Below are positions 7,594 to 44,490 of a DNA stretch of 64,000 bases, one piece after another. Position 1 is the stretch's first letter. Each line of letters opens with the position of its first letter. Source of the stretch: Candidatus Woesearchaeota archaeon (GTDB taxonomy: Archaea > Nanobdellota > Nanobdellia > Woesearchaeales > GW2011-AR4); NCBI GenBank assembly GCA_018303625.1, contig JAGVXV010000010.1:13411-77410 (forward strand). The letters run 5' to 3'. Position numbers and translations under genes: made by a program. The notes under the pieces were generated by a model. It searched no databases and was not told the DNA's origin. It saw only the letters and a list, made by a program, of their open reading frames with translations.

Positions 7594-8736
7594 ATGAGGG
7601 GCTTGGCAATAACTGAAAGGGGCATTGAGGATATCTGCGCCAAAGAGGTAAAGGAGCTGATAAATGCGGATGCTGAAATTAGAGAAAGCTGCGTGGCATT
7701 CAATGTTAAGAAACTGCCCGATTTATGCCTTTTGTGCTACAGGGCGCAGTCTGTAAGCCGAATTCTTTTTTTATTTGAGGATTTCAGCCTGGATGGTGAT
7801 CTTTTCGGGAAAATAAACGGGAAAATAGGGAAAGTTGACTTTTCCGGCTGGCTGGATAAAGGCACCAGCTTTGCCGTCAGGTGCCTGAAAGACGGAAATG
7901 TGGCAAGTGCTGCAGAAATTGAAAAGAAGGCAGGGGAATTTGTGATTGACAATATAAAAAAGAATAAAAAATACCGGCAGGAGGTTAATTTAATCCAGCC
8001 GGATGTGCTCTTTGTGGTTTATATTAATCAAGGCCGCTGCTATTTTGGGATTGATTTCTCCGGCTTTGATTTGAGCAAAAGAGGCTATAAGATTTTCATG
8101 CACCCCGCCTCATTGAAGGGAACCATAGCTTATGCCTTGGCAAGAATAGCGGAGTTTCGCAAAAAAGACTCTTTATTAGACCCTTTTACAGGCTCTGGCA
8201 TGATACCGATAGAAGCTTCGTTATTCGCATTGAATTTTCCGGTTAATTTTTACAATAAGGACAAGTTTGCTTTTTTGAAGTTAATTCCGCTTAAGAATTT
8301 TGATTTTGGCAGGTTCTTCAGGCAGGCAGATAAGAAGATAAGAAAGGAAAAATTGAGTGTTTATGGCTATGACAATTCCATGAAATTTGTGCAGTATGCA
8401 AAAAAGAATGCCAAAATCGCCGGGATTGACAAGCAGCTCAATTTCAGCAGGGTTGATGTCGAGTGGCTTGACATAAAATTCAAGAAGGGCAGTGTTGACA
8501 AAATCGCGGCTGACATGCCTGCGCTGTCAAAATACAATAAAGATATCGAGAAGGCCTATAAGGAGCTTTTTTACCAGTCGGACTACATATTAAAAAAAGA
8601 CGGCATTCTTGTTGTCTTGGTCCGGGATTTAAGCCTGATAAAGGGGCTTTGCGCGGAATACAATTTCAAGACCATCGAGCAAAGAAAGGTTTACAGCGGA
8701 AAGCAGGAGTTATTGGCAGTTAAGCTGAAAAAGTGA
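7594..8736 (+). CDS. THUMP-domain tRNA (guanine-N2) methyltransferase (Trm11/Trm14-like) with variant motif IV
   Basis: N-terminal ferredoxin-like and THUMP region, then a Rossmann methyltransferase with motif I 'LLDPFTGSGMIPIEA'. Motif IV reads 'AADMPALSK' instead of the (D/N)PP(Y/F) consensus. Confidence 0.65.
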   Translation: MRGLAITERGIEDICAKEVKELINADAEIRESCVAFNVKKLPDLCLLCYRAQSVSRILFLFEDFSLDGDLFGKINGKIGKVDFSGWLDKGTSFAVRCLKDGNVASAAEIEKKAGEFVIDNIKKNKKYRQEVNLIQPDVLFVVYINQGRCYFGIDFSGFDLSKRGYKIFMHPASLKGTIAYALARIAEFRKKDSLLDPFTGSGMIPIEASLFALNFPVNFYNKDKFAFLKLIPLKNFDFGRFFRQADKKIRKEKLSVYGYDNSMKFVQYAKKNAKIAGIDKQLNFSRVDVEWLDIKFKKGSVDKIAADMPALSKYNKDIEKAYKELFYQSDYILKKDGILVVLVRDLSLIKGLCAEYNFKTIEQRKVYSGKQELLAVKLKK

Positions 8737-8757: not shown

Positions 8758-9063
8758 TTGCATGATGGCGATATGCTTGAAAAAAAGAGGAAAGCAAGCA
8801 TTTTCGAGAAACTGCTTCTGGTAGTAGGGCTATTAGTTCTTGTCATAGGCTACTTCCTCATAAACCGCGTCTTTATCGCCGATAATTATACATTATCATG
8901 GGGATTCCTGCAGACAGTTTTCCTGTGGCTTCTGATGGTCATTTTTATTGTCGTGCTGGCGATAGGGGAGGATATAAAGGAAAGCATTTTGTCCGACCAG
9001 TTCGAGGAAATCAGGAGCCTGAGGAAGGACATAAACGACATTTTAAGGGGAAAAAAGAGTTAA
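8758..9063 (+). CDS. small membrane protein, hypothetical
   Basis: 101 aa with two predicted TM helices and a charged C-terminal tail. Confidence 0.35.
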   Translation: MHDGDMLEKKRKASIFEKLLLVVGLLVLVIGYFLINRVFIADNYTLSWGFLQTVFLWLLMVIFIVVLAIGEDIKESILSDQFEEIRSLRKDINDILRGKKS

Positions 9064-9082: not shown

Positions 9083-9416
9083 CTACTTTGCAGAGGGACT
9101 GGCGCTTAGCTGTCGGCAGAGATACTAAATCTGCTTTGCAGATTTATTCAATCTTCTGCTGAGGAAAGTCCATCCACACCTGCCTTGCAGGAAGCAGCCA
9201 CTTTCGGAAGAAAGTTCCAGCAATGGAAGTAAACCGCACAGAAACGAGACCTCCCTGGCTAAGGATGATAAACGCGAAGTTTCCCGCGAGGGAAATGAGT
9301 TAACCTTTTGACGTTGCCAAGGAAAGGATGAAACGGCGAGCACTGGCTTGTGCAACCTTTACAGGGCTTAGTTAAATGCTAAGGCAGATGATCGCAACCT
9401 TATGTTGCAAAAAGCA
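9083..9416 (+). ncRNA. rnpB: RNase P RNA (archaeal), approximate ends
   Basis: A roughly 330-nt GC-rich island in AT-rich DNA with no credible ORF. It contains the universal P4 motif 'GAGGAAAGTCC' (about 9161-9171) and a CR-V-like 'ACAGGGCTTAG' (about 9361-9371). The 5' 'CTTTGCAG' pairs with the 3' 'TTGCAAAAAG' as helix P1. Confidence 0.7.
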
Positions 9417-9466
9417 TCTGACAGAAGATGGCTTATGCCAGTCCCATTTTTCAATATTCGGTTAAA

Positions 9467-9640
9467 ATGAGCAATGATAGGGTTTCAATACCATCAGGCA
9501 TGGGGGGCCTTGTAAGGTATTTTGACGAGTACAAAAGCAAAATAAAATTCAAGCCCGGCCATATCGTGATTTTCAGCATAGTGGTCATTGTCATAATGAT
9601 ATTTCTTTACAGCTACGGAAACAGGCTGCTAGGCATATAA
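9467..9640 (+). CDS. secG: Preprotein translocase subunit Sec61beta (SecG)
   Basis: 'MSNDRVSIPSGMGGLVRYFDEYKSK' followed by a single C-terminal TM helix, the hallmark 'GLxRYxDE' motif of archaeal Sec61beta. An internal start is preferred over the ORF-track start. Confidence 0.65.
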   Translation: MSNDRVSIPSGMGGLVRYFDEYKSKIKFKPGHIVIFSIVVIVIMIFLYSYGNRLLGI

Positions 9641-9641
9641 A

Positions 9642-9977
9642 ATGATACCAGGAATGAACCCGAGAAAGATGCAGCAGATGATGCGCAAGATGGGTATTTC
9701 CCAGCAGGAAATTGACGCAACCGAGGTAATAATCAAAACAGCCGAAAAAGAGCTTGTCATCTCGAATCCGCAGGTAAGCAAGGTAAACATGATGGGGCAG
9801 GAAACATTCCAGATAATAGGGAATGTAGAGGAAAGAAGCAGGGAAATAGACATAAGCGATGAGGATATAAGGACAGTGATGGAGCAGGCCAATGCCGATA
9901 AAAAAAGCGCGAAAGAGGCCATTGAAAAAAACAACGGCGATTTGGCTGCGGCAATCATGGAATTAAAGTCTGACTGA
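9642..9977 (+). CDS. nac: Nascent polypeptide-associated complex protein (NAC alpha homolog)
   Basis: An NAC domain ('ELVISNPQVSKVNMMGQETFQIIGNVEE') plus a C-terminal UBA-like 'DEDIRTVMEQANADKKSAKEAIEKNNGDLAAAIMEL'. Confidence 0.85.
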   Translation: MIPGMNPRKMQQMMRKMGISQQEIDATEVIIKTAEKELVISNPQVSKVNMMGQETFQIIGNVEERSREIDISDEDIRTVMEQANADKKSAKEAIEKNNGDLAAAIMELKSD

Positions 9978-10011
9978 GAAAAGCTTTATATTTTCAGGCT
10001 GGTTTATCCGT

Positions 10012-10497
10012 ATGGAAAAATTCCAGGAATTTGGAGGTTTGGCAAGGGAAAAGCTGCAGCTTGCAGAGCATATACTCGCAATAACCTACCCGATGGTTAA
10101 AGATGCCCGCCTGCTGCTGGCTGTTGCTGAAAACCTGTTTTTGTCTTTGACATACGCTATGAGCTCAGTTCTTTACTACGAGAGGCTGTTTAACCGCATA
10201 CCGCCATTCCAGGAAAATTTTGCAGCAAAATTCCATTTGTTTGAAAAAAAATGCATCGGAAAGCATGGGATAAGCAGGGAGCACATAAGGCTGATACAGG
10301 AAGTAAGGGACATAGTCATGCAGCACAAAAAAAGCCCTGTCGAATTCCAGAGAAAAGGCCAGTTTGTCATATGCGATGAATATTTTAGTATCAGGGTTAT
10401 ATCAGCAGATTTTTTGGAAGATTATGTTTCAAAAGCAAAATCATTTATAGATGGCATACTTACCACAGTAAGCAGGGATGAGAGCGTATTAGCCTGA
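10012..10497 (+). CDS. hypothetical protein (tandem paralog A)
   Basis: 161 aa with no known motif. It shares a C-terminal signature with the downstream ORF ('REHIRLIQEVRDI...FLEDYVSKAKSFI' vs 'EEYRRHVTMISNV...LKEDYETTKNFI'). Confidence 0.4.
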   Translation: MEKFQEFGGLAREKLQLAEHILAITYPMVKDARLLLAVAENLFLSLTYAMSSVLYYERLFNRIPPFQENFAAKFHLFEKKCIGKHGISREHIRLIQEVRDIVMQHKKSPVEFQRKGQFVICDEYFSIRVISADFLEDYVSKAKSFIDGILTTVSRDESVLA

Positions 10498-10507
10498 TTT
10501 TTTCAGA

Positions 10508-10972
10508 ATGGAAGAAGCCTTGAATAACGCAGTGCAGGAACTGAAGAGGGTAGACCATTTGTTCTATGTAAGCCTCAAATACACCCGGACAGTGGATATG
10601 ATGAGGCACATGATTGAGAGATTGATAAGCACCATAGACTTCGGCACAGAGTCTTTGCTCAAGCACGCAAAGGAGAATAAATTAATAGCTTCGATACCGA
10701 GCAACGCGGGATTGAGGTCCGAGCTGGTGAAAAAGGTTTACCATGACAACCAGGAGATAATAAGCTACATAAATTTTTACATGAAACTGAGGAAAATCCT
10801 CAGGGCTGACCATAGCAAGAGGGAGGAATACAGAAGGCACGTTACAATGATTTCCAATGTCGGCGGGGAGATTGTCGAAGTGAGCATAGACACGCTGAAA
10901 GAGGATTACGAAACAACTAAAAACTTCATAAAGCTGGTTAAAAAAACACTTTACGGGGAAGAAGAATCCTGA
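10508..10972 (+). CDS. hypothetical protein (tandem paralog B)
   Basis: 154 aa, co-directional with and 10 nt downstream of paralog A. It has the same length class and a shared C-terminal motif. Confidence 0.4.
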   Translation: MEEALNNAVQELKRVDHLFYVSLKYTRTVDMMRHMIERLISTIDFGTESLLKHAKENKLIASIPSNAGLRSELVKKVYHDNQEIISYINFYMKLRKILRADHSKREEYRRHVTMISNVGGEIVEVSIDTLKEDYETTKNFIKLVKKTLYGEEES

Positions 10973-10974
10973 AA

Positions 10975-11487
10975 ATGGATAAGCTGAAAAAGAGGCTGAA
11001 AGAAAAGGGGTGGGCCGAGCAGGAAATAGATAAAACTATAAATATTGTCAGGGAGGCTAAGGAAGGGAAGCACGCGGCAATAAAAATCCTTGACAAAGCA
11101 GTCTACTGGCTCGCTTTGGTTATAGCCGTTATAGGCAATTTTATCATTTCCGTTGCTTTAATACCGCCGCTGATGTTTTTGAAATCAGTCCAGCTGTTTT
11201 TGGTTACCATGATTCTTGGCGCCTCTTTTGGTCTGCTGTTCGAACTGCTTATAAGGAGCATAGAGCATCTTGAGGCAAGGCACCATATCTTTCTGGGCAT
11301 TTTAATCCCGCTCATAGCCATAATAAACGTTTTTATCATCACTTTAGTCGCAAATGGCTTTGAGAAAGCCTTGAATATTAATAATCCGCAAAACCCGTTT
11401 ATTGTTGCAGTTGTTTATGCCTTTTCATTCATACTGCCTTTTGCCTTCTATAAACTCGTGCTGAAGAAGGGCTATTATTCCGGCTAA
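10975..11487 (+). CDS. membrane protein, hypothetical
   Basis: 170 aa with a hydrophilic N-terminal roughly 40 aa and then 4 predicted TM helices. It is tightly packed in the same operon. Confidence 0.4.
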   Translation: MDKLKKRLKEKGWAEQEIDKTINIVREAKEGKHAAIKILDKAVYWLALVIAVIGNFIISVALIPPLMFLKSVQLFLVTMILGASFGLLFELLIRSIEHLEARHHIFLGILIPLIAIINVFIITLVANGFEKALNINNPQNPFIVAVVYAFSFILPFAFYKLVLKKGYYSG

Positions 11488-11488
11488 A

Positions 11489-12052
11489 ATGGCCTGCAAT
11501 GTCTTTATCATCCATGGCGCATACGGGCGCCCTGATGAGAACTGGTTTCCATGGCTGAAGGGGGAATTGGAGAAGTTGGATTGCCGGGTTTTTATTCCTA
11601 AATTCCCAACGCCTGAAAAGCAGACAATGAAAAAATGGCTGAAGGCTTTTGAAAATTATGGAAAATATTTAAATGAGGATTCTATTGTTGTCGGGCACAG
11701 CCTGGGCTGCGCATTCATCCTGAATCTGCTGGAAAATAAAAAAATCAGGGCTGCATTTTTGGTCGCCGCATATTACAAGTTCATAGGCAATGATTATTTT
11801 GACACTATAAGCAAGACATTCATGAAAAGCTTTGATTGGGAAAAAATAAAAGGCAATTGCGGCAAATTCTTCATTTACCATTCTGACAATGACATGTACC
11901 AGCCGCTTTCCATGGCTCATGGCCTGACTGATAACTTGAATGCCAGATTGAAAATAATAAAAAATGCCGGGCATTTCAATGAGAAATCCGGCTATGTGAA
12001 ATTTGAGGCCCTGCTGCATGATTTAAAAAGGCTTGTCGCAAAAGATTTATAA
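11489..12052 (+). CDS. alpha/beta-fold serine hydrolase (RBBP9/YdeN-like)
   Basis: 'FIIHGAYGRPDENWFPW', a nucleophile elbow 'GHSLGC', and a C-terminal 'NAGHFN' His motif. About 190 aa, typical of this esterase family. Confidence 0.6.
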   Translation: MACNVFIIHGAYGRPDENWFPWLKGELEKLDCRVFIPKFPTPEKQTMKKWLKAFENYGKYLNEDSIVVGHSLGCAFILNLLENKKIRAAFLVAAYYKFIGNDYFDTISKTFMKSFDWEKIKGNCGKFFIYHSDNDMYQPLSMAHGLTDNLNARLKIIKNAGHFNEKSGYVKFEALLHDLKRLVAKDL

Positions 12053-12077: not shown

Positions 12078-12171
12078 GGTGGCCGTAGTTTAATGGTAGA
12101 ATAAGCGGCTGTGGATTGCTTTGTTTGCAAACAGAGCCCGCTTGGAGTGGGTTCGATTCCCACCGGCTGCC
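12078..12171 (+). tRNA. tRNA-His (GTG) with about 22-nt intron in anticodon loop; G-1 encoded
   Basis: Acceptor GTGGCCG/CGGCTGC, an extra 5' G-1 opposite discriminator C73 (a His identity element), U8A9, D-arm GTTT/GAAT, and anticodon stem AGCGG/CCGCT with loop CTGTGG|intron|. The T-arm is GTGGG-TTCGATT-CCCAC. Confidence 0.7.
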
Positions 12172-12258
12172 CTTTTTTATATAAAATGGCGGGTTCGTTT
12201 CAGCTTTGGTGATTTTTATTTTTTTCCGCAAGCTTTTTAAATACCCCCATTATCCTTA

Positions 12259-22825: not shown

Positions 22826-23105
22826 TAAGCGGGAGGACGCGCTTGAAAATGGGCAGGATCCTCGCTATCAGTTAACCCTGAGCTTTTCTTGGCCCTGTTT
22901 TCTGTAAGCACCGATGCCAAAGGTTAAGGCTGCTTCCTTCCGGACCTGACCTATTTCCCAAAAACACCAGCCAAACAGGACAAAGCCTCATTGTCGAGCC
23001 CAAGACTGATAGTTTTGGAAAGTGCCTCTTTTCCAGCTTCACCCTGTGTAAAGCGTATTCACAGTTACAGGAGAGCGCTAACCTCCCAGCAAAGTCCTCC
23101 CATAA
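22826..23105 (-). ncRNA. ffs: Signal recognition particle RNA (7S/SRP RNA), approximate ends
   Basis: The minus strand contains 'GGTCAGGTCCGGAAGGAAGCAGCC', identical to the universally conserved helix-8 (domain IV) segment of 4.5S/7S RNA. The 5' 'GGGAGGAC' pairs with the 3' 'GTCCTCCC'. An oligo-T run follows the 3' end. The island is GC-rich with no plausible ORF. Confidence 0.8.
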
Positions 23106-44362: not shown

Positions 44363-44490
44363 TGGGCCTGCCAGGATTTGAACCTGGGACCATTCTCGGC
44401 TTATTGGCTCTCGATGTCTAACAGCTGGTTATCAGTTTCGCCGCCTCTTCTGGAGACTCGAGCATTCTAACCAGACTGAACTACAGGCCC
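44363..44490 (-). tRNA. tRNA, 128 nt, with a roughly 36-nt anticodon-loop intron and extra nucleotides in the variable region; anticodon probably CTC (Glu) but uncertain
   Basis: Minus strand. Acceptor GGGCCTG/CAGGCCC with A73. An intact D-arm GTTC-AGTCTGGTTA-GAAT. Anticodon stem CTCGA/TCGAG enclosing 43 nt. T-arm CCAGG-TTCAAAT-CCTGG preceded by 22 nt. Confidence 0.55.

Follow-up and report, generated by a model that had tools for sequence, protein, structure and literature searches.

Introduction

HEPN domains usually act as dimers and, to our knowledge, almost all of the prokaryotic HEPN proteins studied are toxins or immune effectors. The Rx4-6H motif of the HEPN domain lies at the end of helix 3 or at the start of the connection between helices 3 and 4, and an acidic residue is found in helix 2 (Anantharaman et al. 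2013, PMC3710099). Described systems include the AF0298/UPF0332-type proteins (PDB code 2hsb; AF0298-like, 'HEPN-T'), in which the basic R is retained and an alternative histidine is used (PMC3710099), and the HepT/MntA (HEPN-MNT) type II toxin-antitoxin systems (SO_3166; PDB codes 5yep, 7bxo and 7ae2). In eukaryotes, Las1 and the KEN domain of Ire1 and RNase L are dimeric HEPN RNases with core roles in the cell and not in conflicts (PMC3710099).

Here we describe two adjacent genes, A and B, from the 64-kb stretch of woesearchaeal DNA analysed in this study (the window). They represent a new family of predicted HEPN fold, with a deviant conserved site, an obligate pair of paralogs and an unusual housekeeping context that is linked to MinD and to the membrane. 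Taken together, the assignments of fold, paralogy and a housekeeping module are held with high confidence.

Results

Organization of the locus

ORF A (positions 10012-10497, forward strand) encodes 161 residues and ORF B (10508-10972, forward strand) encodes 154 residues; the two co-directional genes are 10 nt apart, where the original prediction had placed them. A is the more divergent and more basic of the two proteins, and B the more conserved. Both are real genes: public data contain 148 matches for A and 2170 for B, which include near-identical proteins and make up large conserved families. They are followed by a gene for a 170-residue membrane protein with approximately four hydrophobic segments (10975-11487, forward strand), which matches no known family, and by a YdeN/RBBP9-type serine hydrolase with a GHSLG nucleophile elbow (11489-12052, forward strand; PF06821 Ser_hydrolase, E = 8.5e-21, above the cut-off). 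All four genes are co-directional, with gaps of 10 nt between A and B, 2 nt between B and the membrane protein, and 1 nt between the latter and the hydrolase.

The upstream region contains genes for a THUMP/UPF0020 methyltransferase (7594-8736), a small membrane protein (8758-9063), the archaeal RNase P RNA (9095-9445, forward strand; Rfam RF00373, 121 bits, full length), Sec61beta (9428-9640 for the longest ORF, forward strand; PF03911, E = 8.6e-11) and the nascent polypeptide-associated complex protein NAC (9642-9977, forward strand; PF01849, E = 2.9e-17, plus a UBA domain). Downstream of the hydrolase are a tRNA-His(GUG) gene (12079-12172, forward strand; Rfam tRNA, 48.3 bits, and ARAGORN), which probably contains an intron given its length of about 94 nt, and the S13-S4-S11-RpoD operon (from 12339).

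The longest Sec61beta ORF overlaps the RNase P RNA match by 18 nt, and the first ATG of that ORF lies within the RNA match. Because of this overlap with the 3' end of the RNA, translation of Sec61beta probably begins instead at an internal ATG (9467), which would give a protein of 57 residues; Sec61beta orthologs have 51-59 residues. A gap of the size of RNase P RNA is also present 5' of Sec61beta in relatives (e.g. locus L001). Two further RNA features were noted on the reverse strand of the window: a full-length archaeal SRP RNA (22831-23101, 116 bits), and an Rfam tRNA match of 128 nt (44363-44490) that has no ARAGORN call and is probably a tRNA with a long intron.

A BRE/TATA-like element, AAAGCTTTATATTTT (9981-9995, forward strand), was read directly from the sequence about 20 nt 5' of the ATG of A. 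It is possibly a promoter of the A-B module itself, and its position suggests a leaderless transcript that would start at the module, apart from Sec61beta-NAC.

A and B are ancient paralogs

A direct BLASTP comparison of A and B gives 19% identity, collinear over 149 residues, with an E-value of 0.15 that is not significant alone; their homology, originally proposed from the sequences, fails this simple pairwise alignment and is rescued by profiles and structure. Alignment of a 26-sequence A profile to a 24-sequence B profile with hhalign gave a probability of 94.9% and an E-value of 4.3e-8 over 152 columns, and use of 74 diverse B representatives increased the probability to 96.2% (E = 2.7e-9) over 154 columns, which corresponds to the full length. 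In a search of all window ORFs of at least 60 residues, neither HMM matched any ORF other than A and B; the A HMM found B at E = 2.4e-6, and the B HMM found A at E = 2.8e-6. Additionally, A-family members from distant lineages match the B HMM at 1e-9 to 6e-11. The AlphaFold2 models of A and B (pLDDT 92.1 and 87.8, respectively) have a common order of elements, H-H-h-H-E-E-E-H. A and B are thus paralogs, whose relationship is seen only by profiles and not by BLASTP. Chance resemblance of two unrelated helical proteins was considered and is ruled out by the profile-profile E-value together with the common fold and top structural match.

The C-terminal signature that had been proposed to link the two proteins stands only in its second half: the L(K)EDY..(K).FI segment in the last helix is aligned by hhalign, whereas the H(I/V)R segment is not, since it corresponds to HIR in helix 3 of A (H91) and to HVT after helix 3 of B (H111).

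Predicted fold and family membership

Foldseek searches with A and B returned the same top matches, HepT (7bxo) and 2hsb, with a probability of 1.00 and E-values of 0.03-0.1 that are not significant alone. Other structural matches include the HEPN domain of sacsin and C-terminal domains of nucleotidyltransferases. According to the models, A and B each adopt the HEPN fold, in which four helices form an up-down bundle and an insert separates helices 2 and 3; here, a three-stranded β-meander is added between helices 3 and 4.

This relationship is invisible at the level of sequence libraries. No HEPN family, such as PF05168, PF01934/DUF86 or PF08780, was among the Pfam matches reported at E<=1 for A, B or any of 74 B-family members, and Pfam, NCBIfam and PADLOC gave no significant match for A, B or the membrane protein; weak library matches to Reov_VP3_GTase, DUF2070 and RecX_HTH1 were all far under the cut-offs and were discarded. 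Sequence-profile searches of the PDB found no HEPN chain for A or B, and the matches obtained (a bromodomain, NDUFB10 and proteasome alpha) are due to chance. The A and B profiles also show no similarity to a PF05168 HEPN protein encoded at locus L089 (hhalign probability <1%), and our literature search found no publication that describes the family. The family is therefore uncharacterised at the sequence level, as had been predicted, and is not a fold-orphan, since structure prediction places it despite the silence of Pfam and NCBIfam. It belongs to a known superfamily by fold only, and within that superfamily to no defined family.

Conserved residues

The predicted HEPN fold allows candidate functional residues to be proposed. 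An exhaustive search of 1.84 billion proteins yielded 455 clusters with E<=1e-3, and residue conservation in the B family was counted in 140 representatives from this search. In the window protein, R105-EEYRR-H111 (R105-x5-H111) matches the Rx4-6H pattern and follows helix 3 (residues 82-99) directly, and its close relatives have R105-EE[FY]RR-H111 at the same place. This canonical motif is not conserved family-wide: position 105 is Arg in only 34/140 representatives, and position 111 is His in 88/140 and Asn in 40/140. Near-invariant in the B family are instead R14, H17 (137/140), K24-Y25-T26-R27-T28, D30, R38, P64, E107 (136/140) and R109 (134/140). D30, at the N-terminus of helix 2 (residues 29-56), is Asp in 133/140 sequences and Glu in six. 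Accepted HEPN families exist with the same kind of motif deviation (PMC3710099).

The A family keeps the helix-1 pair D19-H20, Y26 and the invariant D31, and E111-F112-x-R114. Both motif residues are missing, with P109 and K115 at the positions aligned to R105 and H111 of B. B has the larger set of invariant polar residues. Judging from the topology of the models, the conserved residues of B would form a single patch at the 'top' of the bundle.

The median pI of the A family is 9.35. Four B orthologs (P0319, P0318, P0289 and P0323) carry C-terminal tails of 50-240 residues that contain 30-42% Lys and Arg, with KKKVSKKKV repeats. The longest tail, 240 Lys-rich residues, belongs to the 395-residue P0319 of a divergent lineage (locus L087, 6001-7188), whose gene is overlapped by an A-like gene and has a homolog of the membrane protein nearby. 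By analogy to the extensions of histone H1 and ribosomal proteins, which they resemble, the tails hint at binding of nucleic acids or ribosomes.

Phylogenetic distribution and gene pairing

The family is present in 420 species genomes. All named homologs come from assemblies labeled 'Candidatus Woesearchaeota', 'Nanoarchaeota', 'Nanoarchaeia' or from unclassified 'archaeon' MAGs, with the exception of one set of TPA bins titled 'uncultured Methanosarcinales', which we take as placeholder labels.

Gene pairing was surveyed at 80 species-level genome loci. A occurs in 39 of these, always directly 5' of B and often overlapping it. Metagenomes yielded a further 80 loci with the A family, and wherever these extend far enough downstream B follows A directly (63/63). 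A is obligately paired with B and was never found without it at the loci surveyed. Loci without an adjacent A form one monophyletic clade that is nested among the A-containing lineages and is sister to the lineage of the window; therefore, A was present in the ancestor and disappeared on a single occasion, from the locus if not from the genome. Seven positions of B differ between the clades with and without A (e.g. Y20W and T42C), and no interpretable pattern of substitutions following the loss of A could be discerned. The pair does not represent a local duplication, as had been supposed, since it is kept across woesearchaeal and nanoarchaeal lineages that share no more than about 35-50% identity in B.

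Conserved neighbours

The conserved module is (Sec61beta-NAC)-A-B-[archaeal MinD]-4TM protein-tRNA-His, where 4TM denotes the membrane protein with four predicted segments. NAC and Sec61beta are located 5' of [A-]B in 77/80 genome loci. The 4-TM protein is 3' of B in 67/80, mostly with a spacing of -4 to +30 nt; it has an N-terminal cytoplasmic 'RL.KKGW..EI' motif and a conserved 'FGLLFE..IRSIEHLE.KHH' motif. The charged and His-rich elements FGLLFE, IRSIEHLE and KHH lie in or beside hydrophobic segments, with H103 being invariant, and the protein may be a small membrane enzyme or contain a metal site. By comparison, the hydrolase follows the membrane protein gene in only 7/80 genome loci and in one metagenomic architecture, and is a rare, lineage-specific addition. 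The compact operon that had been predicted thus holds for the membrane protein, but not for the YdeN-like hydrolase as a conserved partner.

An archaeal MinD gene is part of the module in other lineages. The order A-B-MinD-TM, with 4-nt overlaps, is found in basal and distant lineages (L073, L081, L083, L086 and L092), B-MinD-TM in L095, and A-B-MinD in L088-L091 and L093. Three of the MinD proteins score above the TIGR01969 minD_arch cut-off of 201.75 bits (L090, 215; L073, 210; L091, 225), and that of L086 is slightly below it at 195 bits. Most module copies of MinD end in an amphipathic helix. No MinD gene is present among the ORFs of the window. We conclude that the ancestral module was A-B-archaeal MinD-4-TM, and that the lineage of the window lost MinD from the module and gained the serine hydrolase. 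Comparison with related genomes thus confirms the synteny of the A-B pair and its membrane partner, and identifies MinD as an ancestral partner that is missing from the window.

The tRNA-His gene lies within 3.5 kb 3' of B in 25/32 A-containing loci compared to 5/32 A-less loci, a strong association that is confounded by phylogeny, and tRNA-His adjacency was for this reason set aside as functional evidence. Loci with this gene include L004, L018, L025 and L064-L091, and at the distant loci L089-L091 it directly precedes HisRS. The proximity of NAC, Sec61beta and tRNA-His may reflect inherited gene order without functional meaning. In two divergent lineages, an uncharacterised protein of 127-150 residues is encoded beside the module on the opposite strand (L087, 7178-7561, reverse strand; L095, 3424-3876, reverse strand), and may be a recurrent neighbour.

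Conservation and association with defence systems

At the same loci, the pairwise identity of B (0.68) is on a par with that of ribosomal protein S13 (0.67) and NAC (0.64). Where both occur, A and B are equally conserved (0.54 and 0.55). The position of the locus is fixed in 77/80 species-level loci, rather than patchy or mobile. No relatives of A or B were found in IMG/VR viral contigs, and a viral origin was discarded on this ground; the PADLOC defence models also gave no match for either protein. Given that the conservation of B matches that of S13 and NAC and that no viral relatives were found, we assign the pair to housekeeping rather than to a role as toxin or in defence.

No MNT gene adjoins A or B in the window or in any of the 168 module loci checked (86 genome loci, L001-L086; 80 metagenome loci, L096-L175; L094 and L095); the genes that do adjoin them are NAC, the paralog, MinD, the 4-TM protein, the hydrolase and tRNA-His. 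An NTP_transf_2 (MNT) gene was noted a few kb 5' of the module in L089 (141-1502, reverse strand) and L093 (582-1106, reverse strand). Its partner in L089 is a classical PF05168 HEPN gene that shows no sequence relationship to A/B, and Endonuc_Holl comes next; the pair is distinct from the module, from which it is separated by 5.5 kb and differs in strand, and recalls the cluster 'MNT-HEPN in a house-keeping context in DPANN' of Makarova et al. 2019 (PMC6393860).

Discussion

Proposed function

We favour, with moderate confidence, a model in which A and B form a HEPN-type heterodimer, with B as the primary and A as an accessory subunit, that binds RNA or a nucleotide in the vicinity of the membrane and possibly also cleaves it. 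Heterodimer formation itself, for which the chances appear about even, is suggested by the dimeric state normal for HEPN domains, and otherwise by the obligate pairing of the two genes. B would be the primary subunit, since it survives alone in one clade and has the larger invariant polar set, and A an obligate, basic accessory subunit.

For the ligand, catalysis and membrane recruitment, we infer the following arrangement. The conserved polar patch, contributed by helix 1 (R14, D16 and H17), the turn between helices 1 and 2 (K24-Y-T-R-T-x-D30) and the strand after helix 3 (E107 and R109), would bind RNA or a nucleotide, and could cleave RNA; R105 and H111 would join the patch in the clade of the window. 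Cleavage, if any, would be metal-independent and would use a non-canonical site of R109 plus H17, comparable to the alternative histidine of AF0298-type proteins. That this putative site has actual RNase activity is doubtful. The 4-TM protein and/or MinD would bring the complex to the membrane, where it would act. The basic A subunit and the Lys/Arg-rich tails of B hint at nucleic acid as the ligand. The tight coupling with MinD and the membrane protein would be explained equally well by a scaffolding or regulatory role that does not involve RNA.

Alternative explanations

The alternative that survives best is one in which A and B have no catalytic activity, do not act on RNA, and serve as HEPN-fold adaptors or regulators of the archaeal MinD ATPase and the 4-TM protein. 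They could, for instance, activate the ATPase or link it to cargo in a system for membrane positioning or division-site placement, and the conserved polar patch would be a protein-protein or nucleotide-binding interface. This is rather unlikely in our estimate. It would account well for the 4-nt overlaps among the A, B, MinD and TM genes of basal and distant lineages, for module MinD proteins that match TIGR01969 and mostly carry a terminal amphipathic helix, for the lack of family-wide conservation of Rx4-6H, and for the presence of a non-catalytic HEPN domain, that of sacsin, among the top structural matches. However, many lineages, including that of the window, keep A-B-TM without a module MinD, and the 64-kb window contains none; invariant Arg, His, Lys, Asp and Glu residues in so small a domain more usually mark a ligand-binding or catalytic site; the Lys-rich tails and basic A subunit point to nucleic acid; and no partnership of HEPN proteins with MinD was found in the literature searched.

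Bolder, and of lower probability still, is the proposal that A, B, MinD and the 4-TM protein together make up a so far overlooked machine at the membrane of Woesearchaeota-type DPANN, with HEPN-fold proteins in a core role. Two versions of this proposal are open. A and B could be the missing partners of archaeal MinD in positioning the division site or cargo. The Dip divisome-positioning system just described for other archaea is absent from most DPANN, and its parts, a GTPase, a DUF2073 protein and a Zn-ribbon protein, are unrelated to A/B (PMC13228585). In the second version, to which the recurrent presence of NAC, Sec61beta, RNase P RNA, tRNA-His and HisRS beside the module points, A and B could form a membrane-tethered RNA-binding or RNA-cleaving device that acts on translating or targeted RNAs beside the Sec translocon, by analogy to Ire1, or on tRNA-His. 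Ire1 is membrane-tethered next to the Sec61 translocon.

It is highly improbable that A and B constitute a toxin-antitoxin or abortive-infection pair, in which a HEPN toxin would be accompanied by a degenerate HEPN protein as antitoxin or partner. The HEPN fold, the HepT toxins among the best structural matches and the arrangement as two small adjoining genes would be in keeping with such a system, but toxin-antitoxin genes are typically patchy in distribution, whereas this locus has, in almost every genome, a fixed place between NAC and the S13 operon, is conserved to the same extent as S13, has no MNT or other antitoxin-type neighbour, and is absent from both the PADLOC matches and the IMG/VR viral contigs. 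Finally, the view that an orphan gene was recently duplicated in place, or that the resemblance is due to chance, is refuted, since the adjacency and similar length of the genes and the insignificant BLASTP result are outweighed by the profile-profile E-value of 2.7e-9, by the shared fold and top structural match, by the separate existence of A and B in lineages whose B proteins have diverged to about 35-50% identity, and by the lack of a DNA-level repeat linking the two genes, between which only short chance repeats were found.

A/B would be a rare prokaryotic housekeeping HEPN module, which is single-copy, conserved at the level of S13 across several hundred woesearchaeal and nanoarchaeal species, located among translation and secretion genes, and operonic with archaeal MinD and a membrane protein. 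It provides a testable handle on the 'dark matter' of DPANN, in the form of H17, R109, D30 and the obligate A-B pairing, and on the still-sought partners of archaeal MinD ATPases.

Comparison with known systems

The likeness of A/B to the eukaryotic Las1 and Ire1/RNase L proteins is by analogy only, as no specific sequence or structural relationship was found. The HEPN domain of sacsin (PDB code 3o10) and the C-terminal domains of KNTase/ANT and LinB are part of multidomain proteins or are partnered with a nucleotidyltransferase, whereas A and B are stand-alone proteins, each paired with its paralog. Among the gene clusters compiled by Makarova et al. 2019 (PMC6393860), NEQ484 resembles the A/B family by its description, being DPANN-specific, alpha-helical and placed among housekeeping genes; overlap of NEQ484/cls.004340 and EPP00023009 with the A/B family is possible.

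In contrast to HepT/MntA, A/B have neither an MNT partner nor a family-wide Rx4-6H motif, and combine a fixed chromosomal position and conservation at the level of ribosomal proteins with no viral or defence association. The closest structural relative, as judged from the predicted models, is the AF0298-type HEPN domain, with which A/B share no detectable sequence similarity. A/B differ from this type in a housekeeping context without an adjoining nucleotidyltransferase, in the three-stranded β-meander predicted between helices 3 and 4, and in the placement of the candidate alternative histidine, which is located in helix 1 of A/B and in the insert between helices 2 and 3 of AF0298-type proteins.
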